Origin: a virus
Length of the DNA: 64,000 bases
Direction: 5' to 3' (one strand)
Virus record (IMG/VR): IMGVR_UViG_3300045988_107973
A program made the position numbers and the translations under genes. The notes beneath the pieces were generated by a model. That model did no database searches. It was not told the origin of the DNA and worked only from the letters and a program-made list of their open reading frames with translations. Each line of letters starts with the position of its first letter. The stretch's first letter is position 1. This document shows, piece after piece, positions 15,993 through 42,260 of this stretch.

Positions 15993-16021
15993 TTGACTTC
16001 TGCAAGGGTATCCTGTATAAT
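15993..16021 (+). promoter_or_regulatory. strong sigma70-like promoter (TTGACT-N17-TATAAT) containing an inverted GTATCCTGT motif
   Basis: TTGACT 15993-98, 17-nt spacer, TATAAT 16016-21. GTATCCTGT lies inside the spacer. Confidence 0.55.
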
Positions 16022-16064
16022 ATAGCTATGGAACGGAGCTACACTATTATAGAGGAGAAAGACT

Positions 16065-16484
16065 ATGGATAGTAATATTGACCCAAAGGTCGGAGAGGTT
16101 TGGTTGGTTGATCTATCCAATGCGACAGGTCACCAGCAGCGCGGTATTCGACCGTTTGTTGTGACGAGCAACAACAAGCGCAACTTCTTCAGTCCCACAA
16201 TCAAAGGGAATCCGTTGTCTTCCAGAATATACAAGCGTTCTCCGGTTCATGTCCTGCTCTCAAAGGAAGATTGCGATTTTCTGGATGTTGACAGTATCGT
16301 TCTTTGTGAAGAGACCGATACACTTAACAAAGGACAGTTCATCAAGAAACTTGGTGTCTTATCGGAGCGTCAGATGAATATGATCGCAATGGCAAGATGC
16401 AAGGATGAACCGTTCTTACTCGCAGCATTCCTGAGCGGCGTACAACATACTATGGAATTTCAGAATTTTGCCGCATTTGCTTGA
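16065..16484 (+). CDS. MazF/PemK-family toxin-like endoribonuclease homolog (solo)
   Basis: N-terminus VGEVWLVDLSNATGHQQRGIRPFVVTS fits the MazF/PemK consensus (G-x-[IV]-x-x-V-D-[FL]...G-x-E-Q-x-G-x-RP-x-VV[VI]S). C-terminus is extended to 139 aa. RBS GAGGAG. Confidence 0.55.
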   Translation: MDSNIDPKVGEVWLVDLSNATGHQQRGIRPFVVTSNNKRNFFSPTIKGNPLSSRIYKRSPVHVLLSKEDCDFLDVDSIVLCEETDTLNKGQFIKKLGVLSERQMNMIAMARCKDEPFLLAAFLSGVQHTMEFQNFAAFA

Positions 16485-16537
16485 TTTTTTATAAGGGTTA
16501 ATGGTACACTACATATAATAAGAAGGAGTGTGCCACT

Positions 16538-17464
16538 ATGCTTACTGAAGAGAAAATCAACGCTTTTGCCGAAAAGTATTCTGATAGAAGCGGTGAGTTT
16601 GTTATATCGACACTTAACCATGTTATGGATTACGAGGCCGAGCGTGGGTATGAGTTGTTTGACTTCACAAAAGATGATTTTGTAAAGATGTTTGCCAAAT
16701 ACAATTGGGTGAATTCAAGTCGGTCGTTCAGAAATGTAAAGTCAATAATTACAGGTTACATCAAAAGTGAGTATCGAGCGAGCATGTATGACTTAGCTGA
16801 ATTCTCGGAGAGCGACGTGAGTTCAGACAATATGTACGAGGACAAGTATTTTGCGTCAGCTGATGAGTTTGTTGATTTCTTGGACAAGTATGAAGAACCA
16901 TATCAGATTCGTATGAACGTGATTGCCGTGCTGTACTGGATTGGTCTTACTTCCGAAGAGGTTTCTAATCTGACAATTAACGATGTTGATTTTGAATCAT
17001 GTACTGTTCTGAATAAGACCGGTGTTGACGCGAGATTGATGAATATCATTAAGCAGTGTTATGAAATGAAACAATACGATGCTCCAAATATGGGAGGATA
17101 CAGAACGTTTTATGTCATAAATGGTGATTACATTCTTCGCAAAACAGAGGATAGAACTGGTGCAGACAGTGACTCAAGAATGTCTACAAATACGATTCAT
17201 AGTTATTTCACGCGCTTGAATGATATTCTCGAAAGAAGATATCATTCAAAGGCTTTAGACCGAAGACATCTGACCAGAAACGGCGAGTATGTCAAGGTTT
17301 ATAACTACTGTAAAACTCATCCAGAATTTAATCTTGCAGAACTTAGTTTCGGAAATGGTAAAGATCCTCTTGCGGACATTATCGGAAGAAAGTGCAGCAA
17401 GGTTGCCTACATTAGTTTCCGGCAAGGATACAAGGGCTGGATCGAATACTTCCACAAAAATTAA
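16538..17464 (+). CDS. hypothetical protein with a degenerate tyrosine-recombinase-like central segment
   Basis: IRMNVIAVLYWIGLTSEEVSNLTINDVDF resembles the start of an integrase catalytic domain, but the catalytic Arg is replaced by Thr. Downstream motifs are unclear. Confidence 0.4.
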   Translation: MLTEEKINAFAEKYSDRSGEFVISTLNHVMDYEAERGYELFDFTKDDFVKMFAKYNWVNSSRSFRNVKSIITGYIKSEYRASMYDLAEFSESDVSSDNMYEDKYFASADEFVDFLDKYEEPYQIRMNVIAVLYWIGLTSEEVSNLTINDVDFESCTVLNKTGVDARLMNIIKQCYEMKQYDAPNMGGYRTFYVINGDYILRKTEDRTGADSDSRMSTNTIHSYFTRLNDILERRYHSKALDRRHLTRNGEYVKVYNYCKTHPEFNLAELSFGNGKDPLADIIGRKCSKVAYISFRQGYKGWIEYFHKN

Positions 17465-17468
17465 AAAC

Positions 17469-17492
17469 AGGGGGCTTCAGCCCCTTGATTTT
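17469..17492 (+). terminator. rho-independent terminator-like hairpin
   Basis: aGGGGGCttcaGCCCCtt followed by gatttt, immediately after the 16538..17464 stop. Confidence 0.5.
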
Positions 17493-17511
17493 AACATTGT
17501 AACTATATAAC

Positions 17512-17520
17512 ACAGGATAC
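17512..17520 (+). promoter_or_regulatory. conserved motif AACTATATAACACAGGATAC (copy upstream of 17544 gene)
   Basis: Exact 20-mer shared with 42241-42260; the 9-mer core recurs five times in direct orientation. Confidence 0.5.
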
Positions 17521-17543
17521 AGAAAATAGTATTTGAATGGAGA

Positions 17544-19619
17544 ATGATAACAATGTCTGATTTCAAGAAATTTCGTGCACTGCTGCAGGACCACTTCAAT
17601 GAGATGGTGAAGGGCGAAAACCCTCTGTTTATCACCGATGCAGACGAGGATGAACTGTATAACCTGTATCTCGACAGCTTCCCAGCTGGCACGAATGAGT
17701 TGTTCCGTAAGCGGCGCGAGTATGACTGTTCCTGCTGCCGCCGTTTCGTAAAGAACATCGGTAAGCTGGTTTCCTTTATGGATGGTCAGATGGTTACCGT
17801 CTGGGATTTCGATACCAAGTCCGATGTTTATCAGCCGGTTGTGGATGCGCTGGCTGCCTATGTGAAAACCTGCGCTGTTGTGAACCCGTATTACGTCAGC
17901 CGCAATATGATCTCTGATAGCAAGTTTGGCACTGAGATGAACTATGAGTATGACGCTGATCATAAGGCGGTTCATACCTGGGATCATTTCGTTGTCGAGA
18001 TTCCTCAGCGGTTCATTGTGCGTCCCGATGACGTACCTACCAAGATGGCTCAGTGGCGTGATTCCGCCAATGTGTTCAAGCGCTCTCTGGAGGAGCTAAC
18101 CATGGATGCCGTGGACACCGTGCTTGAGCTGATTGCGCAGAACAGCCTGTATCGCGGTAAGGAGTTTGAATCTCTGGTTCGTGGCTTCAAAATCGATAAG
18201 CAAGTGTATGATCGTCTGCCTGATGAAAAGAAGTCCGCTTATGTTTGGATGGCTCCCGGCGGAGCTTCGATGAACCGGCTTCGCATCCGCAATACGGCAA
18301 TCGGTACTCTGCTGGTGAACCTGAGCGAGGGCATGGACGTGGATGCTGCTGTGTCTGCGTTTGAGGCCATTGTTGCTCCCGCCAACTATAAGCGTCCTAA
18401 GGCGATTTTTACCAAGAAGATGCTGGAAGACGCACAGAAAACCGTCACTGAGTTGGGCTATATGAACAGTCTGGGTCGCCGGTTTGCTACTCTGGACGAC
18501 ATCACCGTAAATAACGTTTTATTCTGTAACCGAGACGCAGCCCCTCGTATTACTGGCGCTGTGAATCCGTTTGAAGCAATGGCGAAGACTGTCGCAATCG
18601 ATCCTAAGAAGTTCGGCCGCGCAGAGGAAATCGGTATTGATAAGTTTATCAAGGACGTGCTGCCCACCGCGACTGGTCTGGAACTGTTTATGGAGAATCG
18701 GTTTGAGAAGAATATGACGTCTCTGATTGCTCCGCAGGATAAGAACGCGCCGTCTATGTTCAAGTGGGCGAATGGTTTCAGTTGGGCGTATACGGGTAAC
18801 GTGGCTGACAGCCAGATCCGTGAGAACGTCAAGAATGCAGGCGGTAAGGTTGATGGCGTGTTGCGTTTCTCTATTCAGTGGAACGATAAGCAGTGCGAGT
18901 GGGATGGAAATGACCTTGATGCCCACTGTGTTGAACCGAACGACTTTGAGATCTATTTTGGCAACAAACGAGATTGGAGTACTGGTGGCAATCTGGATGT
19001 AGATATTATTCATCCTGATCGCGATGAGGCCGCTGTTGAGAATATTACATGGCCTGACATCAAAAAGATGAAGGATGGTAAATACGAGTTCTTTGTTCAT
19101 TGCTTCTCTAACCGTGGCGGCAAAACCGGCTTCCGCGCAGAGATTGAATTTGATGGTCAAATCTACTCCTTCAATTACAATATTCCGCTGCGTCAGACTC
19201 AGAATGTTTCTGTTGCTACTGTTGTGTTGAATGATGGGCAGTTTACTATTAAGGAACATCTCAATAGTTCTACTTCTTCCCGTGAAATCTGGGGTGTGAA
19301 TTCCAATCAGTTTGTACCGGTGTCCGTAGCAATGTATTCTCCGAACTACTGGGACGAGCAGAGTGGTAACGGTAATCGTCATTACTTCTTCATGCTCAAG
19401 GATTGTGTAAACCCTGAAAAGCCCAATGGATTCTACAATGAATTCCTGAAGGCGGAACTGCTACAGCATAAGCGAGTATTCGAGGCTCTTGGTTCTCAGA
19501 TGGCAGTTCAGTCGGTAGATGACCAGCTGTCCGGCGTTGGGTTCTCTGAGACGAAACATGATTCCTTTGTTGTCAAGGTTCAGGGCGCTACTGAGCGGGT
19601 TCTGAAAGTTGTTATTTAA
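17544..19619 (+). CDS. large hypothetical protein (691 aa), first gene of the Pnkp/tRNA operon
   Basis: Long ORF after GGAGAATG. No confident family assignment. Antisense ORFs are judged spurious. Confidence 0.5.
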   Translation: MITMSDFKKFRALLQDHFNEMVKGENPLFITDADEDELYNLYLDSFPAGTNELFRKRREYDCSCCRRFVKNIGKLVSFMDGQMVTVWDFDTKSDVYQPVVDALAAYVKTCAVVNPYYVSRNMISDSKFGTEMNYEYDADHKAVHTWDHFVVEIPQRFIVRPDDVPTKMAQWRDSANVFKRSLEELTMDAVDTVLELIAQNSLYRGKEFESLVRGFKIDKQVYDRLPDEKKSAYVWMAPGGASMNRLRIRNTAIGTLLVNLSEGMDVDAAVSAFEAIVAPANYKRPKAIFTKKMLEDAQKTVTELGYMNSLGRRFATLDDITVNNVLFCNRDAAPRITGAVNPFEAMAKTVAIDPKKFGRAEEIGIDKFIKDVLPTATGLELFMENRFEKNMTSLIAPQDKNAPSMFKWANGFSWAYTGNVADSQIRENVKNAGGKVDGVLRFSIQWNDKQCEWDGNDLDAHCVEPNDFEIYFGNKRDWSTGGNLDVDIIHPDRDEAAVENITWPDIKKMKDGKYEFFVHCFSNRGGKTGFRAEIEFDGQIYSFNYNIPLRQTQNVSVATVVLNDGQFTIKEHLNSSTSSREIWGVNSNQFVPVSVAMYSPNYWDEQSGNGNRHYFFMLKDCVNPEKPNGFYNEFLKAELLQHKRVFEALGSQMAVQSVDDQLSGVGFSETKHDSFVVKVQGATERVLKVVI

Positions 19620-19633
19620 GAGGAGAAATTATT

Positions 19634-20017
19634 ATGGAAAAGAATCTGTTTGAAATTGCAACCCGTAATCGCTATCGCTTCAACTATAAGGGTATTATGA
19701 CTGTTGAAGATCTGTGGGCTCTGAGTGTCGAGGCACTAGATGCGATTTTTAAGACCCTGAATCGTCAGAAGAAGACCGCAGACGAAGACTCCCTGCTGGC
19801 TGTTAAGAGTGCCGAAAATACCGAACTGGCAAACAAGATTGAGCTGGTCAAGTATATCGTGTCTGTCAAGCTGGCTGAATCTGAGGCTCGTGTGGATGCA
19901 GCCGAGAAGAAGGCGCAGCGCGATAAGATTATGAAGATTGTGGCAAAGAAGAAGGACAAGGAGCTGGAAGATATGGACGTAGACCAGCTGATGAAGAAGC
20001 TGGAAGAGTTGAACTAA
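19634..20017 (+). CDS. hypothetical coiled-coil protein (127 aa)
   Basis: ORF after AGGAGAAA. K/E-rich and heptad-like. Confidence 0.45.
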   Translation: MEKNLFEIATRNRYRFNYKGIMTVEDLWALSVEALDAIFKTLNRQKKTADEDSLLAVKSAENTELANKIELVKYIVSVKLAESEARVDAAEKKAQRDKIMKIVAKKKDKELEDMDVDQLMKKLEELN

Positions 20018-20086
20018 AATAGACATTTTATCGTGATTTGGCAACAAATAAATGACGATAATACGTTAAATAAAGGGAGAAAAACG

Positions 20087-22297
20087 ATGAGAACTTTGCT
20101 TCTTTTCCGTGGAGCACCCGGATGCGGGAAGTCCACCTATATTAAAGAGCATGATCTGGAAAAGTATACGCTTAGTGCAGATACGATTCGCCTTATGTGT
20201 CAGGGTGGTCAGGAAACCCCGGCTGGCACAATGGAAATCTCTCCCCAGAACGATGATGTTGTCTGGGATATGCTCTTTAAGCTGTTGGAGGTTCGGATGT
20301 CTCACGGTGAATTTACCGTGATTGATGCAACGAATTCCAAGACGGTCGAAATGAATCGTTATAAGAATCTTGCAAAACAGTATCGTTATCGGATGTATGT
20401 TATTAACATGACGGACCTTCCGATCGAGGAATGCAAACGAAGAAACGCTCAGAGAGAATGGCTGAAGCGAGTTCCTGAAGCGGCTATTGATAAGATGTAC
20501 GCTCGGTTTGCTACTCAAAAAGTTCCTTCTGGCGTGACAGTTCTTCCTTCTACTACGGATGTGATGTCCGATTTGAACTACTGTCCGAATGACTTCAACC
20601 AGTGGAAGAAGATTCATGTCATCGGTGATGTTCATGGCTGTTATACTTGTTTAAGTGAATACCTTGGTGAGATGAAGGACGATGAACTTTATATCTTCGT
20701 TGGTGATTATCTCGATCGTGGCATTGAAAACGTTGAGGTATTCAAGTTCTTGTGTGATGTTGTAAATAACAACCGCAAGAATGTGATCCTTTTGGAAGGG
20801 AATCACGAGCGTTGGCTGAACAAGTGGGGGCATGATGAACCGGTTCAGAGTGAAGAGTTTGCAAACTACACTCGTCCGCAGCTCTTTAAAGCCGGTATTG
20901 ACAAGAACACTGCTCGTAAAATCTATTCCAGAGTTGGCCAATGTGCCTACTTTGAGTATGATGGGAAGCGGTACTTCGTGAGCCACGGTGGTTTGAGTTA
21001 TCTGCCTTATTTTCTTCCTTTTGTATCTGCTGACCAGATGATTAAAGGTGTAGGTCGCTATCCTGATATGCTAACCGTGGCTGAGTCTTGGGAAAAATCG
21101 ATGCCGGATAGCTACATTCAGATCTTCGGTCATCGAAATGTGCAGGATGTTCCTATTGATATGGGGCATCGGTGCTACAACCTCGAAGGAAAAATCGAGT
21201 TTGGTGGATATCTCCGTTGCGTGGAACTTGAACACGGTCAGTCAATCAAATGTGTAGAAACAAAGAACGATGTGTTCCGAAAAGAGGAGCCAAAGACTGA
21301 AACTGCCGTTGAAATGAAAACTGAGTTCGATAACGCAGAACTTGTCAGTAAGATGCGTCAAAGCAAATATGTGTTTGAGAAGCGATTCGGAGATATTTCT
21401 TCTTTCAACTTCTCTCGTGAAGCATTTTATAAGAAGCACTGGGATGAGGTTTCTACCAAAGCAAGGGGGCTGTTCATTAACACAAAGACGAATAAGATTG
21501 TAGCTCGAAGCTATGATAAGTTCTTTGCGGTCGATGAGCGGAATGAAACGAGAATTGGAAACCTACAGAACACTTTGAAGTTCCCGGTGACTGCATATCT
21601 GAAGGAAAACGGATTTCTTGGCATTGTCTCGTATGATGCAGAACAGGATGGTCTGTTCATTGCAAGTAAATCCACTCCTGAAGGGCCTTTTGCAGATATG
21701 TTCCGAAAGATTCTCATGGATACGACTTCCGATGAAGACCGTAAGAATCTGAAGGAAGTTGCAAAAGAGAATGGTTCAGTCATTTTTGAAGTGATTGATC
21801 CTGTAAATGACCCGCATATCATCGAATACATGACACCATATATTGTTTTGCTGGATATTGTTGCGAATGATATGAACTTCAGTGTGATGGATTACGATGA
21901 TCTGAAGCGTGTTGCTGAAAAGTGTCATTTGCAGATTAAGGAGAAGGTTAAGATCTTTGAGAGCTGGAGTGAATTCTATCCTTGGTATGAAGAAGTCATG
22001 AATGAGAATTATCTGTACCGTGGCATCGAGCATATTGAAGGCTTTGTTTTGAGAGATAACAACAATTTTATGTTTAAGCTGAAGCTTCCTTATTATAAGC
22101 ACTGGAAGTTCTTGCGTGGTGTTATGCAGAGCGTCCAGAAGCGTGGCTATTACGAAAATACCGCAAAGTTGTTTACTGCTGAGGATAACCTGTTCTATGG
22201 TTGGATGCGTGAGCAACGAGAGAAAGACCAGGAATCTTTCTGCAAGAAGGGTATTATTCAGTTACGGAATGAATTCTATGAGAATCGGCACGAATAA
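20087..22297 (+). CDS. Pnkp-like polynucleotide kinase-phosphatase with C-terminal ligase-like region (RNA repair enzyme)
   Basis: N-terminal P-loop LLFRGAPGCGKST (kinase). Central calcineurin-like phosphoesterase motifs GDVHGC, GDYLDRG, GNHE, GHR. About 330 further C-terminal residues contain a KENG candidate adenylyltransferase motif I. The domain order matches bacterial Pnkp. Confidence 0.6.
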   Translation: MRTLLLFRGAPGCGKSTYIKEHDLEKYTLSADTIRLMCQGGQETPAGTMEISPQNDDVVWDMLFKLLEVRMSHGEFTVIDATNSKTVEMNRYKNLAKQYRYRMYVINMTDLPIEECKRRNAQREWLKRVPEAAIDKMYARFATQKVPSGVTVLPSTTDVMSDLNYCPNDFNQWKKIHVIGDVHGCYTCLSEYLGEMKDDELYIFVGDYLDRGIENVEVFKFLCDVVNNNRKNVILLEGNHERWLNKWGHDEPVQSEEFANYTRPQLFKAGIDKNTARKIYSRVGQCAYFEYDGKRYFVSHGGLSYLPYFLPFVSADQMIKGVGRYPDMLTVAESWEKSMPDSYIQIFGHRNVQDVPIDMGHRCYNLEGKIEFGGYLRCVELEHGQSIKCVETKNDVFRKEEPKTETAVEMKTEFDNAELVSKMRQSKYVFEKRFGDISSFNFSREAFYKKHWDEVSTKARGLFINTKTNKIVARSYDKFFAVDERNETRIGNLQNTLKFPVTAYLKENGFLGIVSYDAEQDGLFIASKSTPEGPFADMFRKILMDTTSDEDRKNLKEVAKENGSVIFEVIDPVNDPHIIEYMTPYIVLLDIVANDMNFSVMDYDDLKRVAEKCHLQIKEKVKIFESWSEFYPWYEEVMNENYLYRGIEHIEGFVLRDNNNFMFKLKLPYYKHWKFLRGVMQSVQKRGYYENTAKLFTAEDNLFYGWMREQREKDQESFCKKGIIQLRNEFYENRHE

Positions 22298-22363: not shown

Positions 22364-22446
22364 GGGGATATGGCGGAATTGACAGACGCAAACGATTCAA
22401 ACTCGTTCGGGAAACCATGTGGGTTTAAATCCCACTATCCCTACCA
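22364..22446 (+). tRNA. tRNA-Leu (anticodon CAA), type II, CCA encoded
   Basis: Hand-folded. Acceptor GGGGATA/TATCCCT. D-arm TGGCGGAATTGACAGACGC is nearly identical to the E. coli tRNA-Leu D-arm. Anticodon stem AACGA/TCGTT with loop TTCAAAC. T-arm GTGGGTTTAAATCCCAC. 3' end ACCA. Confidence 0.55.
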
Positions 22447-22522
22447 GTTCATTTACAGATGAGCATGAGTTAGAATGGCAAATCGGAAAGACGGTTGACT
22501 CTTGGACAGACAGGGTTGATAT

Positions 22523-22610
22523 GCCGCAGTGATGGAGTGACATACATTTCCCGCTTAAACCGGGACGCCTGAAACATGGATCGTGGGTTTGAATCCCACC
22601 TGCGGCACCA
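22523..22610 (+). tRNA. tRNA-Leu (anticodon TAA), type II, CCA encoded
   Basis: Acceptor GCCGCAG/CTGCGGC. Anticodon stem TCCCG/CGGGA with loop CTTAAAC. 17-nt variable arm. T-arm GTGGGTTTGAATCCCAC. Confidence 0.55.
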
Positions 22611-22613
22611 TAT

Positions 22614-22687
22614 CCAGAATGTAGTGTAATGGCAGCACGCTGCGTTTGGGACGCAGAAGAGCGATTCGAATTCGACATTTTGGACCA
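22614..22687 (+). tRNA. tRNA-like element with a Pro(TGG)-type anticodon arm; T-arm non-canonical (possible pseudogene)
   Basis: Acceptor CCAGAAT/ATTTTGG + A + CCA pairs perfectly. Anticodon arm CTGCG-TTTGGGA-CGCAG matches E. coli tRNA-Pro. No 5-bp T-stem could be found around TTCGAAT. Confidence 0.25.
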
Positions 22688-22783
22688 GTAGAGTATTCCA
22701 TTTGCTTTTCATGAATACCTTCCTATTATTCTTGGCTCTCCAAAAAAACGGAGCAGTAGGACGCAGCAAGCCAAGTTACATAA

Positions 22784-22873
22784 TGAGGGTTCGCCAAGTG
22801 GTAAATGGCATCTGGCTTTGACCCAGACAGCGTGCTTTATAGCCGATCGTCGGTTCGATCCCGACACCCTCAA
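22784..22873 (+). tRNA. tRNA-Gln (anticodon TTG)-like with an abnormal 21-nt variable region
   Basis: U1-A72 acceptor TGAGGGT/ACCCTCA and D-arm TCGCCAAGTGGTAAATGGC resemble E. coli tRNA-Gln. Anticodon stem TCTGG/CCAGA with loop CTTTGAC. T-arm GTCGGTTCGATCCCGAC. The segment CAGCGTGCTTTATAGCCGATC is inserted at the variable position. No encoded CCA. Confidence 0.45.
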
Positions 22874-22878
22874 TTTAT

Positions 22879-22967
22879 GGACACGTGATGGAATCGCAGA
22901 CATGAAAGATTTAGGCTCTTTTGCCGTTAACAGCGGTGTGCCCGTTCAAATCGGGTCGTGTCCACCA
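22879..22967 (+). tRNA. tRNA-Leu (anticodon TAG), type II, CCA encoded
   Basis: Acceptor GGACACG/CGTGTCC. Anticodon stem AAAGA/TCTTT with loop TTTAGGC. Variable-arm hairpin CCG-TTAACAG-CGG. T-arm GCCCGTTCAAATCGGGT. 3' end ACCA. Confidence 0.6.
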
Positions 22968-23066
22968 TTATCAACTTATGGTTGCGTACCGTTTGTTGAT
23001 CTCCTTTACTATTATTCCCGGCTCGCCAGTGATGGTGCAGTAGTGCTTTGTAAGCTGGGTTTTCAT

Positions 23067-23141
23067 GCAGCGGTCGTACAACGGCTAGTACATCAGCCTT
23101 CCAAGCTGAGGATGAGGTTTCGACTACCTTTCGCTGCTCCA
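23067..23141 (+). tRNA. tRNA-Gly (anticodon TCC), CCA encoded
   Basis: Acceptor GCAGCGG/TCGCTGC. D-stem GTAC/GTAC. Anticodon arm TCAGC-CTTCCAA-GCTGA is identical to E. coli glyT. T-arm GAGGTTTCGACTACCTT. Confidence 0.65.
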
Positions 23142-23322
23142 ATCTTGTATGGGTAGGATCTTTAGCGGTCAGATCCGGCCGCGCCTGTGCAAGATACCAC
23201 CCCGAAAGGGGCTAACGAAATTTTCTATGTCAATTATTCTCGGCTCACTTAAAAGAGTGCAGTTGACCTTTGTAAGCCGAGTATCCCAGCCTAGTGATGC
23301 CAGTTGCTAGGTTGGTTCTTAT

Positions 23323-23398
23323 GCGACTGTAGTTCAATTGGTAGAGCGTCAGATTTCCAATCTGAATGTTGCGGGATCGTGCCCCGTCAGTCGCTCCA
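23323..23398 (+). tRNA. tRNA-Gly (TCC)-like second copy with a non-canonical T-loop (ATCGTGC)
   Basis: Perfect acceptor GCGACTG/CAGTCGC. D-arm TAGTTCAATTGGTAGAGC. Anticodon arm TCAGA-TTTCCAA-TCTGA. T-arm GCGGG-ATCGTGC-CCCGT lacks T54/A58. CCA encoded. Confidence 0.4.
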
Positions 23399-23529
23399 CA
23401 CGCAGCCCATGACGCTGCACCGGTTACTCAGAGCCGAAAGGAACCTATATGTTACGACATGGTTGCTAAGAGTGATCATATTGGAACGCGACGTAGCTTT
23501 GATAGTGGGAATTAAATTCTGAGGTATAC

Positions 23530-23598
23530 GGCTGGATAGCTTAATGGTAAAAGCGCTCGGAAACACCGAGAGATGAGGTTCGATTCCTCCGCTGGCAT
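23530..23598 (+). other. tRNA-like remnant (good D-arm and T-arm, no acceptor pairing, defective anticodon arm)
   Basis: TAGCTTAATGGTAAAAGC D-arm and GAGGTTCGATTCCTC T-arm. The anticodon region CTCGG-AAACA-CCGAG has a 5-nt loop. The ends are a direct repeat (GCTGG), not complementary. Confidence 0.2.
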
Positions 23599-23625
23599 CG
23601 CGCCGACGAAAGTCGGCGTTTGCAT

Positions 23626-23702
23626 GGGATAGTAGCTCAGTTGGTCAGAGCTGGCGGCTCATAACCGCTTGGTCGCGAGTTCAAATCTTGCCTGTCCCAC
23701 CA
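23626..23702 (+). tRNA. tRNA-Met (anticodon CAT; elongator or Ile-lysidine type), CCA encoded
   Basis: Acceptor GGGATAG/CTGTCCC. D-arm TAGCTCAGTTGGTCAGAGC. Anticodon stem GGCGG/CCGCT with loop CTCATAA. T-arm GCGAGTTCAAATCTTGC. Confidence 0.6.
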
Positions 23703-23817
23703 GCCCGAAAGGGCGTACATAAAACCTGCTAGAACTTTTGTTTTATAGGCGAATGAATAATATGACGTTAATACGTCTATCACTTTTCGCTTATTTTCGG
23801 GAGTTTAACTATATTAC

Positions 23818-23826
23818 ACAGGATAC
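23818..23826 (+). promoter_or_regulatory. conserved motif AACTATATTACACAGGATAC (copy upstream of methyltransferase operon)
   Basis: 19 of 20 nt match the 17501-17520 and 42241-42260 copies. AAGGAGG lies 4 nt downstream. Confidence 0.5.
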
Positions 23827-23844
23827 GAAAAGGAGGAATGAAAC

Positions 23845-25305
23845 CTGAAGCATTACGGAGATATCACACAACTTCATGGATGGCAGATTGAACCGGTTTC
23901 CTGTATCACAGGAGGCAGTCCATGCCAAGATTTGAGTCAGGCCGGTAAACGTGAAGGTTTGACTGGTGAACGCTCTGGATTGTTCCTTGAAATGATTCGT
24001 GTGATTACAGAAATGAGGGAGGCCACCAATGGGGAATGTCCAAAATTCGCAATCTGGGAAAATGTCAGAGGAGCTTTTAGCTCAAGCAAAGGTGAAGACT
24101 TCAGATGTGTGTTGGAAAGATTTGCACGCATTGTCGAGCCAGACGTTTCAATTCCTCGACCTTCAGGAAAGAACGGAAAGTGGGCAAAATCTGGAGCGAT
24201 TTCCGGTAATGGATGGTCTCTTGCATGGAGATTGTTCGACGCTAAATACTGGGGAGTCGCCCAGCGCCGCCAAAGAATCGCGCTTGTCATGGATTTTGGA
24301 GGACAACGTGCCTCAGAAATTCTATTTGAGCGCACGAGCATGTCAGGGGATTCTTGTGAGAGCATCCCGGCGTGGAAAACCTTTGCCCGAACTCCTGAAG
24401 CAAGCGTTGCTGGATATGATCGAATGGTGGAATCCAGGAACTCTGTCACAGGTGGTGCAGAAAGTGAAGGAACAAGAAGGTCTGGAAGAGAAGGAATTGG
24501 ACGAGTATTGGAGTCAAACCATCGAGAGACTTCGACTCGATGCACAGAACCTACAGCCTACACTCTAAAAATCCGCTCTGGATGTGAAGGTGGCGGTAAA
24601 GGCGCTCTGGTTCAAACTGAATTGAGCGCAACGATTTCTACGTTGCAAGACCAGACGCTAATTTGCTTGGTAGAAAATCCCTCCTTACATAATTTAAAAC
24701 AAAAGATCTCGCCGGTAGTATTTGAGAGTCACAGCCAGGACGCTCGATACACTCAGCAGGGTGATACAAGTCCGACTTGTACTGCTCAGTGGGGAACAGG
24801 CGGTAATAATATGCCGCTGGTCGTTGAAAAGAAAGCCTTTGCAATGCAGCGCATTGGTGAGTACAAGGAAAGCGAACACGCCAGCACGATGAAATCTCGT
24901 GATTATAAGGACGCTACTGATCTGATTGCAGAGAAGGAAACGAAGAATCTACGATGGATTGTTCGCCGCTTGACTCCTTTGGAGGATGAACGGTTACAGG
25001 GTTTCCATGACGGATGGACTGATATCGGTGATTGGATCGATGAGAATGGGAAGAAGCACAAGACTTCTGACGCAGCTCGTTACAAGGCGCTCGGCAATTC
25101 GATTGCTTTGCCTCAGTGGTATTGGATTTGCCAGAAGATGAAACCGTATATTGGTGAAAATCCCACGCTTGGCAGTCTTTTCGATGGAATTGGTGGCTTT
25201 CCGCTTGTCTTTGAAAGTACGTATGGTGATGGTACTGCTATCTGGGCGAGCGAAGTGGATAGTTTTTGCATCGCAGTTACAAAGAAAAGATTCCCAGAAA
25301 ATTAA
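23845..25305 (+). CDS. circularly permuted DNA (cytosine-5)-methyltransferase (motif order IV-VI-VIII-TRD-X-I-II/III)
   Basis: In the frame opening after TGA 23839-41: GDITQLHGW...GGSPCQDLSQAGKREG (IV), FAIWENVRGAF (VI), QRRQRIALV (VIII), ALGNSIALP (X). At the C-terminus: SLFDGIGGF (I) and ASEVDSFCIAVTKKRFPEN (II/III). There is no in-frame ATG. CTG 23845 sits 8 nt after AAGGAGG. ATG 23838 is in the -1 frame (17-aa ORF). Confidence 0.6.
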   Translation: MKHYGDITQLHGWQIEPVSCITGGSPCQDLSQAGKREGLTGERSGLFLEMIRVITEMREATNGECPKFAIWENVRGAFSSSKGEDFRCVLERFARIVEPDVSIPRPSGKNGKWAKSGAISGNGWSLAWRLFDAKYWGVAQRRQRIALVMDFGGQRASEILFERTSMSGDSCESIPAWKTFARTPEASVAGYDRMVESRNSVTGGAESEGTRRSGREGIGRVLESNHRETSTRCTEPTAYTLKIRSGCEGGGKGALVQTELSATISTLQDQTLICLVENPSLHNLKQKISPVVFESHSQDARYTQQGDTSPTCTAQWGTGGNNMPLVVEKKAFAMQRIGEYKESEHASTMKSRDYKDATDLIAEKETKNLRWIVRRLTPLEDERLQGFHDGWTDIGDWIDENGKKHKTSDAARYKALGNSIALPQWYWICQKMKPYIGENPTLGSLFDGIGGFPLVFESTYGDGTAIWASEVDSFCIAVTKKRFPEN

Positions 25306-28097: not shown

Positions 28098-28119
28098 TTT
28101 TTAGTCTTAGCTAAGTAAT

Positions 28120-28128
28120 ACAGGATAC
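28120..28128 (+). promoter_or_regulatory. conserved ACAGGATAC motif copy upstream of 28144 gene
   Basis: agtaatACAGGATACataaggag lies directly before the RBS. Confidence 0.45.
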
Positions 28129-36274: not shown

Positions 36275-36509
36275 ATATCATGTGAGCTGTGGTATGTTTG
36301 GTATTTACGCAGGAACTGTTAAAAAGAATGGAACCGAATGGAAGGATAAAACTCGTGTCACGGATGAAGCTATTGAAGCAGTTCGTGATTGGCTTCTTTC
36401 TGGAACTCAGTTCAACAATAAAACTTCTAATGGATACTCATGGACAACAAAGGAAGGTAATACTGTAACTTTGAAAGTGTCTATCGAAGGTAAGGAGCAG
36501 ACAGAATGA
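36264..36509 (+). CDS. hypothetical small protein
   Basis: ORF overlapping the upstream stop. Confidence 0.35.
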   Translation: MMSEYHVSCGMFGIYAGTVKKNGTEWKDKTRVTDEAIEAVRDWLLSGTQFNNKTSNGYSWTTKEGNTVTLKVSIEGKEQTE

Positions 36510-36540
36510 ATTCAAATAGTATGAAAGGTGGTGTTGCCTG

Positions 36541-39500
36541 ATGAGTAGTAGTTTACATACGCACTCATACTTTTAGCTTACTCGACGGATTCTCTTCTCC
36601 TGAAGAAAATCTAAAAAGAGCATCAGAACTTGGTTTAAAAGCCATTGCCATTACGGAACATGGTGAGGTAACAAGCTGGCCGTACTACTCAGAACTGAAA
36701 GACAAGTATCCGAATGTAAAACTTCTTTATGGTATTGAGGCATATGAGTGTGAGGACAGGGAAGTTAAGGATAAGAACAGTAAATACTGGCACTTGATTA
36801 TCATTGCAAAAAACGAAGCTGGTCGTCAGGCTGTTAATCGCTTGTCTACACTCGGTCATCTTCATGGTTTTTATAGCCGTCCTCGTATCACAAAAGAGGA
36901 TATCGCTAAGGAAGATACGAATAATTTGATTATCCTGTCTGCTTGTTTAGTAAGTAGGCTATCCAGAACAGATGATTATAACGCTTGTATTAAGCTGGTT
37001 CAAGAGTATAAGAGCTTATTTCCTCACTATTATCTTGAAGTTCAGGCTCATGCAAACAGTGAACAGGCAAAATACAATCAAAAAATCATGCGGCTGGCGA
37101 ATGATACTCATACAAAAGTAGTTGTCACAAACGATGTTCACGCTGCCACCAAAGAAGATCTTTATTATCAAGATTATTTCCTTCGTATCGCTCATGATAC
37201 GGAAACCGCCGCAGAAATCTATGAAGGATGCTACTTCATGTCTCGTGAGGAACAGCATAGAGTTCTTGATAGCCAGATTGGATACGAAGCGGCAGAATGG
37301 TGTATCAATAATACTGACGAGGTTGCCGACCTGTGTGATGATGTAGATATGCCTTGGCATGAACCTGAACTTCCCAAAATTGAGATTCCGCCACAGTATT
37401 CTAATTCGGCAGCTTACCTGAAAGACCTTGTAAAAGAGGGATGGAAGAAACGTGGAATTGATAAGTTTGATGCAGAAAAGCAGAAAATCTATCGCAAACG
37501 TGTTGATGATGAGTTGTTTGTCATCGAGAAGAAAGACTTCTGTGACTACTTTTTGATTCTAGTCGATTACATCAACTGGTGTAAACAGAACGATGTTATT
37601 GTTGGCCCAGGGCGAGGTTCTGCTGCTGGTTCACTTGTATGTTACTTGATTGGTATTACGCAGCTTGACTCTATCAAATACGAGCTTGATTTCGGACGAT
37701 TCCTTACTATTGAACGAAAGGACCTTCCTGACGTTGATGTGGACGTTAGCGACCGTGCGAAGGTTGTTGAGTATTTGACACAGAAGTATGGAGAAGATCG
37801 AGTGGTTCAGGTTATGAATATCGTGTACACTACTCCGGTCACTTCGATTCAAGACGTTGGTAAAGTTCTCGGCTTTCCGTATGCTGAAATAAGAAAAATC
37901 AGCGAGAAGTTTGTTCAAAAGACATGGAAGGATTGCCTTGATGCCAACCCGGAAGTGGCTGAAAATCCGAAGTATAAGGAACTACTTGACATCGCAAGTC
38001 ATATCAATGGTCGCCCACGAGGATATGGTATTCATGCTGGCGGTGTTATTGTCTGCCGACATCCTTATTATGAGTATATCGGCATTCGGCACGGCACTGA
38101 CGGAGAACATGTTATTTCTGTTGATAAAGTGATGAACGAGAAGATTGGACTCGTCAAGTTTGATATTCTTGGTGTTGCGTCGCTGGTTGCTATCGATGAG
38201 GCAAAACGTGAAGACAATATTCCAGACTGGGAGATTGATATTAACAATCCAGAGTTTGAAAACGATAAGGCAACTTACGATTTGATTTGCTCCGGGCGGA
38301 CAGACAATCTATTCCAGATTGAGTCTTCGGGAATGAAGGATCTGGTTGCACAGCTTCAGCCGAGGTCGATTGAAGAGCTATCCGCTTTGATTGCACTTTA
38401 TCGCCCTGATGCAATGCCGTCCATTCCTACATACGTTGATTGCAAATACCATCCTGAGCACATTCATTATTTTCATCCTGATATGGAACCGATTTTCCGC
38501 AGCACATACGGTGTGAATATTTATCAGGAACAGAGTATGAAGCTCACGAAGGTGTTCGGTGGTCGAAACGATGCCGGAGCTGACAGAATGCGTAAGTGCT
38601 TGGCAAAGAAAAAACCTGAGAAAGTCAAGGAAGAGGTCGAGCTTCTTTACGATGAGATTCTTGCAAACGGATACGATAAAGCAACCGCCGAATATATTTG
38701 CGATGAACTGTCAACGAAGGGCGGCTACGGATTTAACAAGTCACATTCTCAGGCGTATGCCGTTATCTGCCTTCAAACAGCATACTTAAAAACACACCAT
38801 CCGCTTGCATTCTTTAAGGCTATGCTAAACCTGAATAAAGCAAAGGTCGGTAAGGTAAACAAGATTATGGTGGATGCACGGAGTTTTGGTGTTCAGGTTC
38901 TTCCTCCGAGTATCAATCGTTCCGGCATGGATTTTACTGTATCGAATGGGAAAATTCTATTTGACCTATCCGCAATCGGTGGTATTGGTGATACGCTTGC
39001 CGATGCTATTATTGCCGAAAGAGATAAGAATGGAAAGTTCAAGGGTCTTGATGACTTCACGAGCCGTGTCCGTGCAACAAAGGCACAGATCATCGCACTG
39101 GTTAAGTCTGGTGCCATTCCTACAAAGAATAAACGAGCATTCTTGGAAAAGTACATTGCGAGTGGTTTGGAGCAATCTGAGTTCAAACCGGTAAGCACAC
39201 TTCCTACAAAAGCTGTCCTGCTGAGTAAGTGGGATATTGATACGGAGCATTATAAGGTTGGTAAGAAGGTTGATAAAGAAACTGTCCTACGAATCTATAA
39301 CGAAAAACGCCGTGTTGTATATGAAACTGAAAAGCTCAAGAAAAAAGAAGCATACATGACTGAGCAGTCAGAGAAGTATTTGAAGGACGAGCAATTCTGG
39401 GAGTTCCAGACATTACAGACGTTCATCATCGATAAGAATCCGTTTGAAAAGGCATACGAGTACATTCAGGATTTCTCAGAGATTGAGAGTGGCGACTCTT

Positions 39501-39757
39501 GTGTGCTGGTTGGTATTATCGCAAAGATTCAGAAGAAGAAAACAAAGACTGGTATGCAGTTTGCATTTGTAAATCTGTACTCTGGTGATGGTATCATTGA
39601 GCTAACTGTGTGGCCGAGAATCCTTTCTGATTATCAGGATTTGATTGTTAAGGGAAGTCAGGTAGCTGTGCTTGGTAAGAAGGAAGATGATTCGCACGTT
39701 ATTGCAAATGACTTCAAGCCTTACAAGCAATGGCTGCATGATAGAGAGATAAGGTAA
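36541..39757 (+). CDS. dnaE: DNA polymerase III alpha subunit (DnaE-type, PHP + polymerase core + C-terminal OB); N-terminal +1 frameshift at a T4 run
   Basis: ATG 36541 after GGTGGTG gives MSSSLHTHSYF then TAG. The +1 frame continues SLLDGFSSPEE...AIAITEHG (canonical PHP HxHSxYSLLDG). Further on: GYGIHAGGVIV, FDILGV, and OB fold QFAFVNLYSGDG. The frames join inside tttt at 36571-74. Confidence 0.7.
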
Positions 39758-39769
39758 GAGGGTTGTAAG

Positions 39770-42100
39770 GTGGCAGATAAGAAATTTAATGAAAATATGA
39801 TCCGTTGCTATATCAGGATAAAACGAGTCTTTTATCCGAAAGATGGGAAGGGGGTGGAGCCCGGCGGCTTCGCCACCTTCTCTGCCGAGGTGGTAAAAGT
39901 CAAGCAGGGAAATCCTATCATGAGCCGATACAGCGACCTCCGACTGAAAGGCAACGTCCCTAGTCTTGATATGGATAAAACTTATTCATTCTGTGGTAAG
40001 TATGTTCATCATGAAAAGTTTGGTGACCAGTATAAAATCGTCTACATGAACGAGTTCCAAGAGATTACCGACCCAGAAGAACAGAAAAGCTTTCTCCGTT
40101 TTATCTTGACAGAACATCAGTTTGAGATGCTTTATGAAGCATTTGATAATCCGTATGAGATCATCAAGAACGGTGATATCAAGTCTCTTTGCACTGTTAG
40201 TGGCATCACAGAAGGTCGAGCACAGAAAATTATCGATGCCTTTGAAAATAACATTGATAACAGCGAAGCATACACGAAGCTGATTGAGTATGGCTTGACT
40301 CCCAGTGCTATCGGAAAACTTGTTCATCAATATCACGGTGCAGACACTCTTGTAAGAAAGATTGAAGAGAACCCTTATGTTTTGATTGACGATGTATATG
40401 GTATTGGTTGGAAGAAAGCTGACGCTCTTGCATTGAATATGGGATTAAAGCCAAACTCTCAATTCCGAATTGAAGCTTACGTTATGCATTTTCTTGCCGA
40501 CCGTGCCGAAGAAGGCAATTCTATCATCCCGGCAAACCAGACAATCAATAGTTGCATTAAGGAACTTGGCTTGGATGAGGGTGACCAAGAGATTATCAAG
40601 AGAGCACTTTTCCATCTGCACGATGTCCGCGAAACGCTTTGGTGGAGTGATGATCGTCAGGAATTTGCTTTAACAAGAGTGTGGAATCTGGAAGATAAGA
40701 TTGCAAAGGAAATTAAGCGTCTGGCGGATGCACCTGTCGAGCCGATTGGTCGAAACACGGATGCTGCAATCGATGAGGCAGAACGTGCTCTTGGCATCGA
40801 GTACACCGAGGAGCAAAGAGATGCTATTAAAAAGGTATGCTCTAGTAATGTCTGTATCTTGACGGGCTACGGAGGAACCGGTAAAAGTACCGTTGTCGCT
40901 GGTGTCCTAAAGGTTCTTCGTGGTAAGTCGTTTGCCCAGACTGCACTCTCTGGTCGTGCTGCTGCTCGTATGCAGGAGATTACTGGTCAGGACGGCAAGA
41001 CAATTCACCGCCTCCTTGGTTACGACATTGAAAATGGTGGCTTTATTCATAATAAGAACAATCCTTTAGAGGAGGATATCATCATTCTGGACGAGACCTC
41101 TATGGTTGGCGCTCAACTGTTTTACGATTTAATTCAGGCAATCGAAACTGGTAAACGATTTATCATGATTGGTGATGACGGCCAGCTTGAGAGTATTGGT
41201 ATGTGCAACATCTTCAAGGATATGCTTGCCTCCAAGGTTGTTCCGGTTGCTCGCTTGACTAAGATTCACCGTCAGGCTGCTAAGTCAGCGATTATCACTG
41301 AGAGTATCAAGGTTCGTAATGCCACGCAGTTGGTTCCTTACGGTTGGGCTGGTAATGAGATTCGTGGCGAGCTGCGTGATTTGGAGCTTAATATCTATAA
41401 GGATGCAGGCGAGTCATTTAGCCACATCATCAATCAGTATCGTACCTTATATAATAAGGTAGGGAACGATAGCGCAAAGATTCAGATTGTACTTCCGCAG
41501 AAGCTCCGTGGCAGCATCTGCACCTACGAGGTAAATAATGCTATTCAGGAAATTGTGAATCCGAGTCGTGGTCAGACCGAAGCGAAGATTTCTATCTATG
41601 GTGATGGCAAGGACAGAGTGTACACTCTGCGTGAGGGCGATCAGGTCATTATCAACAAGAACAATTATGAACTTCACACATACAATCTCAAGACAAAGAA
41701 AAAGGAAGAGAAGTGTCCGGTGTTCAACGGAAACCGTGGCATTATCCGAAAGATTGAGACTAGTTTTATTCTGGTTGATTTTGACCAATGGGGAACGATC
41801 TTCATTCCGCATTACTTTGGTGGGAATAACATCTGGGCAACGCTTGAACTTGCTTATGCTTTAAGTTGTCATAAACTACAGGGCAGTGAGGCTCCGTATG
41901 TGATTGTTGGTATGGACAACTCTGCATACCTGATGCTGACGAGAGAATGGCTCTATACGGCCATTACTCGTGCCAAGAAGTATTGTGTGATTTGCGCCGA
42001 AACTCATGCTCTTGATCGGGCTGTAAAGACTTCGAGGGTGCCATACAAGCGGACGTTCTTGAAGGAATTTTTACGGAAAGAATTTTCAGAAAAGCATTGA
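39770..42100 (+). CDS. RecD2/Dda-like SF1 DNA helicase
   Basis: Helix-hairpin-helix SGITEGRAQKIIDAF. Walker A ILTGYGGTGKST. Also IILDETSMV, IMIGDDGQL, and C-terminal LSCHKLQGSEAPYVIV..YTAITRAK. Confidence 0.6.
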   Translation: MADKKFNENMIRCYIRIKRVFYPKDGKGVEPGGFATFSAEVVKVKQGNPIMSRYSDLRLKGNVPSLDMDKTYSFCGKYVHHEKFGDQYKIVYMNEFQEITDPEEQKSFLRFILTEHQFEMLYEAFDNPYEIIKNGDIKSLCTVSGITEGRAQKIIDAFENNIDNSEAYTKLIEYGLTPSAIGKLVHQYHGADTLVRKIEENPYVLIDDVYGIGWKKADALALNMGLKPNSQFRIEAYVMHFLADRAEEGNSIIPANQTINSCIKELGLDEGDQEIIKRALFHLHDVRETLWWSDDRQEFALTRVWNLEDKIAKEIKRLADAPVEPIGRNTDAAIDEAERALGIEYTEEQRDAIKKVCSSNVCILTGYGGTGKSTVVAGVLKVLRGKSFAQTALSGRAAARMQEITGQDGKTIHRLLGYDIENGGFIHNKNNPLEEDIIILDETSMVGAQLFYDLIQAIETGKRFIMIGDDGQLESIGMCNIFKDMLASKVVPVARLTKIHRQAAKSAIITESIKVRNATQLVPYGWAGNEIRGELRDLELNIYKDAGESFSHIINQYRTLYNKVGNDSAKIQIVLPQKLRGSICTYEVNNAIQEIVNPSRGQTEAKISIYGDGKDRVYTLREGDQVIINKNNYELHTYNLKTKKKEEKCPVFNGNRGIIRKIETSFILVDFDQWGTIFIPHYFGGNNIWATLELAYALSCHKLQGSEAPYVIVGMDNSAYLMLTREWLYTAITRAKKYCVICAETHALDRAVKTSRVPYKRTFLKEFLRKEFSEKH

Positions 42101-42125
42101 CAATTATATTCGTATCCTGTATAAT
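42097..42125 (+). promoter_or_regulatory. strong sigma70-like promoter (TTGACA-N17-TATAAT) with an inverted GTATCCTGT motif in the spacer
   Basis: TTGACA 42097-102 and TATAAT 42120-25. The spacer is nearly identical to that of the 15993 promoter. Confidence 0.55.
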
Positions 42126-42182
42126 ATAGTTATAAAAAGTCTCCATCCCGGAGGCTTAAAATTCTCTCTTTAGATGCATAAC

Positions 42183-42191
42183 ACAGGATAC
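42183..42191 (+). promoter_or_regulatory. conserved ACAGGATAC motif copy (between promoter and terminator-like hairpin)
   Basis: Sequence gcataacACAGGATACgag. Confidence 0.45.
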
Positions 42192-42200
42192 GAGAAAGAG

Positions 42201-42236
42201 AAGGCTTGCTCGTAACGACAAGCCTTTCTTTATTAG
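42201..42236 (+). terminator. hairpin + T-tract terminator/attenuator-like structure in the ligase leader
   Basis: AAGGCTTG-ctcgtaacga-CAAGCCTT followed by tctttatt. Confidence 0.45.
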
Positions 42237-42251
42237 CTATAACTATATAAC

Positions 42252-42260
42252 ACAGGATAC
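42252..42260 (+). promoter_or_regulatory. conserved motif AACTATATAACACAGGATAC (copy upstream of ligase gene)
   Basis: Exact 20-mer also at 17501-17520, followed by AAGGAGG. Confidence 0.5.

Follow-up and report, generated by a model that had tools for sequence, protein, structure and literature searches.

Results

A 21-bp box recurs between the operons of an uncultured phage

We analysed a stretch of viral DNA of 64,000 nucleotides (IMG/VR record IMGVR_UViG_3300045988_107973; "the window" denotes this whole stretch), in which a short sequence, ACAGGATAC, recurs between the genes and two of its copies enclose a gene for an integrase-like protein. All genes of the window are on the plus strand. 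In the copy-bearing region they run in the order MazF/PemK-like toxin, integrase-like open reading frame (ORF), 691-aa protein, Pnkp-RNA ligase fusion, eight tRNAs, methyltransferases, SSB-like protein, Sak4-like protein, DnaB, primase, RecJ, PolIII alpha, RecD2 and ATP-dependent DNA ligase. The window holds seven exact matches to ACAGGATAC, against 0.29 expected, and none of 100 shuffled sequences reached this number. The matches are at 17512, 23818, 28120, 42183 and 42252 on the plus strand and at 16008 and 42112 on the minus strand, and all seven are intergenic.

A sequence-only reading of the window had described five direct and two inverted cores and a 20-mer around them, and all of these were recovered: 17501-17520 and 42241-42260 hold identical copies of the 20-mer, and 23807-23826 agrees with it in 19 of 20 positions. 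The minus-strand sites also match the 20-mer, with 2-3 mismatches, so direct and inverted copies are one element; against TAGCTA-N6-ACAGGATAC the inverted sites have 0-1 mismatch. All seven copies are thus instances of a single asymmetric 21-bp box, TAGCTA-N6-ACAGGATAC, with an AT-rich N6. This unity had been missed, as had the SPbeta-like nature of the phage and its MrpR/SroF-type repressor, both described below. The copies are listed here with their surroundings (RBS, ribosome-binding site).

16008-16028, minus strand: box copy 1, inverted, TAGCTATATTATACAGGATAC; covers the spacer end and the -10 and reaches to about -1 of the promoter at 15993.
17500-17520, plus strand: box copy 2, direct, TAACTATATAACACAGGATAC; 8 nt past a terminator and 18 nt ahead of the RBS of the 691-aa gene.
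23806-23826, plus strand: box copy 3, direct, TAACTATATTACACAGGATAC; past the tRNA cluster and 2 nt ahead of the RBS of a C5-methyltransferase gene.
28108-28128, plus strand: box copy 4, direct, TAGCTAAGTAATACAGGATAC; 2 nt ahead of the RBS of the replication operon.
42112-42132, minus strand: box copy 5, inverted, TAACTATATTATACAGGATAC; covers the spacer end and the -10 and reaches to about -1 of the promoter at 42097.
42171-42191, plus strand: box copy 6, direct, TAGATGCATAACACAGGATAC; followed by a terminator and not by a gene.
42240-42260, plus strand: box copy 7, direct, TAACTATATAACACAGGATAC; 2 nt ahead of the RBS of the DNA ligase gene.

The left arm of copy 6 is degenerate in the window and complete in relatives; its core starts 71 bp from that of copy 5. 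Scanned over the window, TAGCTA-N6-ACAGGATAC with up to 3 mismatches gave the same seven sites and one likely chance match, and the window has no further copy. The relatives carry about five more copies just left of the region equivalent to the window. Many IMG/VR contigs of 120-140 kb that are ~90% identical carry the motif. Comparison of 18 independent site classes, drawn from the window and ~120 related contigs, showed a conserved block of 21 bp with sharp edges (positions 0-20), reading T-A-G/A-C-T-A, AT-rich N6, A-C-A-G-G-A-T-A-C. In homologous alignments variation falls in the flanks and spares the box itself. The box has no internal symmetry, and the same 21 bp are used in both orientations. 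The phage family has about twelve site classes, of which 3-4 point away from any gene, as do two of the seven sites in the window. The asymmetric element is repeated at many intergenic heads of early/lytic operons, including that of the integrase-like gene itself and, in relatives, that of an RNA polymerase.

The 3' edge of the direct copies is also a mosaic junction: at 17520/17521, 23826 and 28128, and in relatives, sequences are identical up to GGATAC and then continue into alternative genes. The cassette 17521-20013, which holds the 691-aa gene and a 127-aa gene, is present or absent as a unit, and in contig L037 the box is fused directly to the sequence at 20014.

Inverted copies overlie strong promoters and direct copies follow terminators

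The promoters and hairpins next to the boxes are the following.

15993-16021, plus strand: sigmaA-type promoter TTGACT-N17-TATAAT (11/12), driving the operon of the toxin and the integrase-like gene.
17469-17492, plus strand: intrinsic terminator of the same operon, GGGGGCTTCAGCCCC followed by a T-rich tail.
42097-42125, plus strand: sigmaA-type promoter TTGACA-N17-TATAAT (12/12).
42141-42153, no strand assigned: short GC hairpin between copies 5 and 6, the interior of a fixed-length cassette.
42201-42235, plus strand: strong hairpin AAGGCTTGCTCGTAACGACAAGCCTT (42201-42226) with a T-rich tail, acting as a terminator.

Both promoters had been recognised in the sequence-only reading, and they proved to be two of the three best intergenic sigmaA-type matches in the window. 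Inverted copies, two in the window and a third ~3 kb left of it in relatives, always lie within TTGACW-N17-TATWAT promoters. They had been placed inside the spacer; they do cover its last 8 nt, but the full 20-21-bp element also takes in the entire -10 and the next 6-7 bp. In this layout the GTATCC arm forms the end of the spacer, the AT-rich centre is the -10, and the TAGCTA arm extends to about -1. Among relatives the three inverted-box promoters keep their -35 and box while the 9 spacer bases in between vary, and on this alignment evidence we take these promoters to be under selection.

The position of the inverted copies also bears on whether the motif acts in RNA, as a site for MazF-like cleavage, as a target of RNase III in a duplex of inverted and direct copies, or as a translation-controlling leader. 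A MazF-like gene adjoins copy 1, the motif contains ACA, and a read-through RNA could pair 42112-42131 with 42241-42260. However, the inverted copies are antisense and precede the transcription starts of the promoters in which they sit, yet 21 of 21 bp are conserved, which argues for recognition at the DNA level; for the same reason the processing signal considered in the sequence-only reading does not fit. Copies 3 and 4 have no partner to pair with, an Rfam search returned tRNAs only, and the fold of the leader at 42130-42285 is unremarkable (z = -2.3), the terminator being its sole robust feature. Moreover, the toxin stays 94% identical in phages in which the box is replaced (see below). 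We regard a function in RNA as extremely unlikely.

Direct copies occupy a different setting. They come after intrinsic terminators (17469-17492, 42201-42235) or hairpins, and with the exception of copy 6 the RBS follows 2-18 nt further on, not 5-20 nt as first thought. The operons that they precede are those for DNA metabolism, replication and ligase and, in relatives, RNA polymerase; upstream of the box comes a terminator or the end of another gene, and downstream the RBS of the operon. Two other details of the sequence-only reading had to be corrected: the copy at 42183 precedes not an RBS but the terminator hairpin 42201-42226, and the copy at 17501 does not head Pnkp, since the first gene past 17520 encodes the 691-aa protein (phrog_1735, no assigned function) and Pnkp is the third gene. 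The replication operon after copy 4 consists of a 97-aa gene, Sak4-like, DnaB, primase, RecJ and PolIII alpha genes. The direct copies had been described as devoid of obvious -35 and -10 boxes. The absence of a -35 was borne out, but a -10-like hexamer is present, being TATAAC, TATTAC or AGTAAT in the window and often TATAAT in relatives. Placement inside a complete sigmaA promoter is thus a property of the inverted copies, and the direct copies fail on the -35.

These features raise the question whether direct copies are weak host sigmaA promoters, with a -10 and T-rich upstream DNA and no -35, whose flanks derive from duplication of a promoter cassette, with no dedicated binding protein. Many relatives indeed have a perfect TATAAT at box positions 6-11 preceded by T-rich DNA. 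Against this, conservation is stronger in the arms TAGCTA and ACAGGATAC than in the -10-like centre. In 7 of the 18 site classes a C stands at the -7 position, and one relative has CGTGAC in the centre of the box and keeps both arms; we therefore take the arms, and not the -10-like centre, to be the constrained part of the box, as judged from these sequences. The arms are also kept in the inverted copies, where they have no promoter role, and the box changes with the allele of the integrase-like gene, as shown below. Weak promoters without a dedicated protein are accordingly quite unlikely to explain the direct copies.

Opposed copies stand at a fixed distance. At three loci the core-to-core spacing is 70-73 bp, although the interiors are unrelated (39 unique sequences) and comprise two different hairpins and one TTGAAT-N17-TATAAT promoter. 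Such pair-cassettes span 42112-42191 in the window and occur in the relatives L012, L047, L069, L126 and others; the ligase locus has a third copy 69 bp beyond the pair. No convergent pair was found. The fixed spacing suggests cooperative or looped binding.

The gene between copies 1 and 2 encodes a candidate integrase-fold repressor

The operon that begins at the 15993 promoter contains two genes.

16065-16484, plus strand: MazF/PemK-like toxin, first gene of the operon (Pfam PF02452, E=2.8e-19; phrog_1936).
16538-17464, plus strand: MrpR/YopR/SroF-family integrase-fold protein of 308 aa, candidate repressor (PHROG, Pfam, Foldseek and profile links).

The candidate repressor gene sits between the inverted copy 1 and the direct copy 2. 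The toxin gene is upstream of it in the same operon, and no antitoxin gene is evident.

The ORF at 16538-17464 matches phrog_5830 (integrase) over almost its full length (6e-11). Its family scores 21-28 bits against Pfam MrpR_N_CB, the ORF itself falling just under the cut-off and one close homologue just over it, and family members bear precomputed matches to PF22823, MrpR_C_cat, a name that was confirmed by scanning YopR itself. When the model of the 308-aa protein was compared with the PDB by Foldseek, phi3T SroF ranked first (9rgl/9rd5, probability 0.99-1.0), followed by the Tn1549 integrase and YopR/MrpR. A family profile run against 1.8 billion representative proteins found 74 proteins of ~320-340 aa. 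YopR also matched 14 of the 74 (best P0266, 1.8e-23), and three of ten that were scanned (P0210, P0211, P0232) pass the Pfam MrpR_N_CB threshold. A sequence search of the PDB with the candidate repressor gave no significant match, and no phage record matches it. As direct comparisons with YopR were not significant either, the family assignment rests on fold and intermediate sequences; on these grounds we place the ORF in the MrpR/YopR/SroF family, with predicted CB and CAT domains and an integrase fold.

In a joint alignment the positions of the recombinase Arg I, Lys, His II and His/Trp III residues are taken by I135/T138, T161, R243 and C286. The protein retains E141 and the C-terminal tyrosine, Y298, but most catalytic residues are lost. 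MrpR of SPbeta keeps three of seven catalytic residues including the tyrosine (PMC10516654), and the pattern of loss in the two proteins is similar.

An integrase fold next to inverted repeats also invites the view that the boxes are recombination sites or terminal inverted repeats, belonging to an invertible switch, to the ends of a mobile toxin/recombinase cassette or to integron-like junctions. Inverted 21-bp repeats do flank a 1.5-kb module with the integrase-fold protein as well as 40-bp segments, and direct copies end, on their 3' side, in a mosaic junction beyond which alternative genes follow. The loss of most catalytic residues speaks against recombination, as do several properties of the sites. 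The interiors of both promoter-linked cassettes are in one orientation in 46 of 46 instances (27 unique), and a 40-bp interior is too short to invert. Every relative examined has the 1.5-kb module in the same place and at the same spacing, no box closes the variable cassette 17521-20013 on the right, and recombination between direct copies would delete essential genes. We consider a role in recombination very unlikely.

The box changes with the repressor allele

Through a search for remote homologues of the candidate repressor we reached the syntenic contigs L159, L160 and L161, and also L156 and L164. In L159-L161 the repressor is only 35% identical to that of the window, whereas the toxin is 94% identical (L159) and the flanks of L159 are 75-86% identical at the DNA level. 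Up to 17 kb of these contigs contain no ACAGGATAC box. Instead, AGTATAGTAWACAGAATTT is found inverted within a TTGACA-N17-TATACT promoter upstream of the toxin gene, and direct right after the same terminator downstream of the repressor gene. This alternative box is also given as AGTATAGTAAACAGAATTT, and its type is referred to as ACAGAATTT. L156 and L164, whose repressors belong to the same second group of alleles (53-78% identical to each other), carry related box variants after the terminator, and the variants have CAGAATTT in common. With a repressor allele 74% identical to that of the window both arms of the box are kept, one copy having lost the -10-like centre (TAGCTACGTGACACAGGATAC). 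A third allele, 27% identical (L157), gives a weak hint of the same layout, with TAACAA-containing repeats, and was not used as evidence.

As far as these contigs allow comparison, the box sequence is specific to the repressor allele: it changes with the protein encoded between the copies while position, orientation and neighbours are kept. By analogy, this co-variation has the pattern of an immunity module in which repressor and operators are exchanged together. It agrees with one of the interpretations offered in the sequence-only reading, a phage-specific regulator site that serves as an operator on the two strong host-type promoters, and so does the conservation of -35 and box around a variable spacer.

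The phage is related to SPbeta and its relatives encode a YonO-type polymerase

The gene order Sak4-x-DnaB-primase-RecJ-PolIII alpha is that of SPbeta yorG-yorL. In relatives, the DNA left of the window encodes a 930-aa RdRP/YonO-type polymerase with the motif NGADFDGD (PF05183, E=9e-15), and on contigs with this polymerase or its 88-49% homologues, genes for YonK, YonJ_N, YonG_N, terminase and YonD_N come after the polymerase gene. From the replication gene order, the YonO-type polymerase and the Yon-type late genes we conclude that the phage is a distant SPbeta-like phage of ~135 kb, uncultured. It is probably temperate. It has three integrase-type genes, and homologues of one of its proteins are found on contigs of up to 784 kb. 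A Faecalibacterium link of the lineage comes from a single NCBI protein name. Megablast and tblastn searches against GenBank phages revealed no close cultured phage, returning unannotated faecal contigs and PolIII alpha matches of at most 34% identity. Among host genome contigs a protein-based scan was empty, and a motif-based scan gave 27 matches, none of them window-like, consistent with chance.

The polymerase offers the main alternative explanation, in which this YonO-type single-subunit enzyme, or some other transcription factor specified by the phage, would use the box as a compact promoter. Middle-gene transcripts would then begin at the direct copies, just upstream of the RBS, and at the inverted copies the phage polymerase would occupy and shut strong host-type promoters or transcribe antisense. 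YonO is still without a defined promoter (PMC5467207), and a later definition was not found in a literature search. The direct copies look the part, being sharp 21-bp elements that are co-oriented with genes, follow terminators, stand 2-18 nt before an RBS, lack a -35 and often have a poor -7 base, and no other strong sigmaA-type promoter lies between 16 and 42 kb. A sharp element of ~21 bp, co-oriented with genes after a terminator and just ahead of the RBS, resembles the compact promoters of T7-type single-subunit RNA polymerases and would suit a YonO promoter.

Other observations are difficult to reconcile with a polymerase promoter. The three inverted site classes point antisense into upstream genes and stand in exact register with sigmaA promoters, copy 6 precedes a terminator and not a gene, and the polymerase gene is itself preceded by a box. 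SPbeta YonO transcribes the late operon only. In L126 the YonK/YonJ/YonG late genes begin in the 10 kb that follow the polymerase gene, and these 10 kb are free of boxes; nor does a similar box lie near the polymerase gene in phages whose polymerases are 61% and 49% identical. Finally, the box changes with the repressor allele while the adjacent toxin is still 94% identical. We therefore judge a polymerase promoter to be unlikely. A combined function, in which direct copies double as a YonO-type promoter for the middle (DNA-metabolism) genes and the repressor binds the same 21 bp, appears to be about as unlikely; if true, it would provide the first defined promoter for the YonO/RdRP-like polymerase family. 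A site for a sigma-like factor, also raised in the sequence-only reading, finds no support: a -35/-10 pair would need more room than the box offers, and no sigma or RNA polymerase gene turned up in the window when 50 ORFs were scanned against Pfam and PHROG.

Further observations on the polymerase locus concern its neighbour and its distant relatives. In all lineages examined (L012, L047, L123, L124, L126) the YonO-like polymerase gene is overlapped at its stop codon by a conserved gene of ~250 aa; this gene has no counterpart beside yonO in SPbeta and could encode a partner of the polymerase. The more distant relative L123, whose polymerase is 61% identical, lacks the box and carries a palindromic repeat, TATAATCTAGTACTAGAKTA, at 6702-6721 and 6790-6809, beside -10 elements in a divergent control region, which indicates a different, classical dimeric regulator there.

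Other features of the window and its relatives

Upstream of the toxin operon, at 15549-15605, two tandem sigmaA-type promoters are built on a repeated ACAAAAAGATGTRTATAATATAT unit ahead of a 108-aa gene of no known family. In phages with the other repressor allele this gene is swapped for an unrelated 105-aa gene.

Another intergenic element is also repeated: ACGNTAWWWCGT(TAAAT) stands shortly before RBSs at 20055-20066 and 23765-23776, with a variant at 61313-61324. It is partly palindromic (TAACG-N6-CGTTA), and its two exact copies compare with 0.16 expected. In L159 it occurs at 11029, 15134 and 16680 and takes the position that the box has before the methyltransferase gene; it may be the site of another regulator.

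The reading frame of the C5-methyltransferase (window 23829-23935), …KHYGDITQLHGWQIEPVSCITGGSPCQDL…, follows its RBS without an ATG, GTG or TTG, and an in-frame CTG at 23845 is kept in relatives. In another frame, a 17-codon ORF starts with the ATG at 23838. Motif I of the enzyme (FDGIGG) is at the C-terminus of a 457-aa ORF, which suggests a permuted or fused enzyme. The PolIII alpha gene (region 36541-36800) has an apparent ATG start at 36541 (MSSSLHTHSYF...), and its frame is broken by an extra T near 36570 (CTTTTAG); past this point ...SLLDGFSSPEEN runs on in the other frame, owing to a homopolymer error or a frameshift. The lineage has two separate tRNA clusters, one in the DNA-metabolism region (eight tRNAs, window 22364-23702) and one between the YonJ-like and YonG-like late genes (L126 16560-17560).

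Discussion

A proposed dispersed operator of an integrase-fold repressor

We propose that the 21-bp box is probably the repeated operator of a phage master repressor encoded at 16538-17464. In function it would then correspond to the SPbeta repeated element (SPBRE), bound by the master repressor MrpR/YopR of Bacillus phage SPbeta, and to the SroF box of phage phi3T. What the sequences establish is the element, where it occurs and how selectively it is conserved, the family to which the protein belongs, and the way box and repressor allele vary together; binding by the repressor, repression of promoters and the role of the direct copies are what we infer. One repressor monomer would clamp each box. 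As the inverted box spans the end of the spacer, the -10 and the DNA up to the start site, a repressor bound there would exclude host RNA polymerase from a strong sigmaA-type promoter, and as the repressor gene is itself served by one of these promoters, the repressor would be autoregulated. At direct copies, bound repressor may block initiation at weak secondary promoters with a -10-like hexamer and no -35, or may act as a roadblock to read-through. Direct copies would in this way silence lytic modules in the lysogen, including the module immediately downstream of the repressor gene, and opposed pairs could support the cooperative or looped binding that their spacing suggests.

Several points weigh against the box being such an operator. 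The link between the protein and MrpR is remote: the candidate repressor and YopR compared directly give E=0.67 by BLASTP and an hhalign probability below 1%, and the AlphaFold model is moderate, with a mean predicted local distance difference test (pLDDT) score of 63 and TM-scores near 0.3. The box sequence is also unlike the SPBRE, the element bound by MrpR, and unlike the phi3T box. Furthermore, of the upstream distances checked for direct copies (15-19 nt), none at 16-18 nt has a -35 and at 15 nt there are only T-rich terminator tails. Many direct copies have the C at -7 noted above (TATAAC), so that they present no recognisable sigmaA promoter for a repressor to block. Every direct copy is co-oriented with genes and abuts an RBS, which a pure operator would not need and which would suit a compact promoter. 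Lastly, the box may track the allele of the polymerase instead: a scan of viral contigs for the alternative box gave two unrelated chance matches, so the polymerase of the alternative-box phages lay outside the comparison, which covered repressor, toxin and flanks.

Comparison with known systems

The operator proposed here is of a kind already known, represented by SPBRE/MrpR and the SroF box; what is new is the box of a very divergent repressor allele in uncultured gut phages. MrpR-bound SPBREs are located at yopM-yopR, yorE, yorM and yonP-yonO (PMC10516654), and the boxes stand at parallel places: at the promoter of the toxin/repressor operon (cf. yopM-yopR), at the replication operon (cf. 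yorE), after the polymerase/helicase genes and before ligase (cf. yorM) and, in relatives, directly before the RNA polymerase gene (cf. yonP-yonO). Both systems have a repeat of ~15-21 bp at about ten intergenic sites of a ~135-kb phage, overlap with a promoter core, sites directly ahead of an RBS, and a phage-encoded integrase-fold protein without catalytic residues. They differ in that the two elements have no sequence similarity. In the SPbeta record we mapped the SPBRE as tAGACAAATACAAAtAATATGTATATAAT; the element occupies the spacer of a full sigmaA promoter that points along the gene and stands directly ahead of the RBS. Every SPBRE copy is such a complete co-oriented promoter, whereas here complete promoters hold inverted copies only. 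Fixed 70-73-bp pairs are not described for the SPBRE and are present here. A possible kinship of the box to SPbeta sequence was rejected, as the sole exact ACAGGATAC core in SPbeta (2685, minus strand) has no TAGCTA arm and lies in an unrelated region. The SPbeta yonN-yonK region, which contains the YonO start site, holds nothing box-like.

In SPbeta and phi3T alike, proteins of this family bind as monomers to an asymmetric box that recurs at early promoters. SroF of phi3T binds as a monomer to a 26-bp asymmetric box and reads 24 of 26 bp (bioRxiv 10.1101/2025.11.27.690993). The box described here is likewise an asymmetric, non-palindromic site of more than 20 bp with an AT-rich centre, a type of site that fits a monomer reading nearly every base pair through CB and CAT domains, and SroF is the best structural match of the window protein model. 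The phi3T box, CAGTAATTTTATTTTTATTCTTAATG, is rich in A-tracts, whereas here two GC-containing arms surround an AT-rich centre, and the identity of the two proteins is below direct pairwise detection. The exchange of repressor allele and flanking sites together, between near-identical neighbours, also recalls the lambdoid immunity regions (imm434, imm21). Lambdoid operators, however, are palindromic, serve helix-turn-helix dimers and cluster at two divergent promoters, whereas the present sites have no symmetry and are scattered across more than 40 kb. From T7-type promoters and a would-be YonO promoter, considered above, the box differs in that it also occurs inverted within host-type promoters, is missing at the late operon start and tracks the repressor allele.

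If the box is the operator of the integrase-fold repressor, the recently described SPbeta-type lysogeny control, in which a monomeric integrase-fold repressor acts through dispersed asymmetric operators, would hold beyond Bacillus phages, in an abundant lineage of uncultured gut phages. The box would add architectures not described for the SPBRE, namely a reversed operator over the -10, operators after terminators without a -35, and fixed-spacing pairs. The two natural pairs of repressor allele and operator, of the ACAGGATAC type and the ACAGAATTT type, could be used to decode how this fold reads DNA. The boxes also mark likely control points of the lytic modules, and may thus aid annotation and engineering of these prophages.

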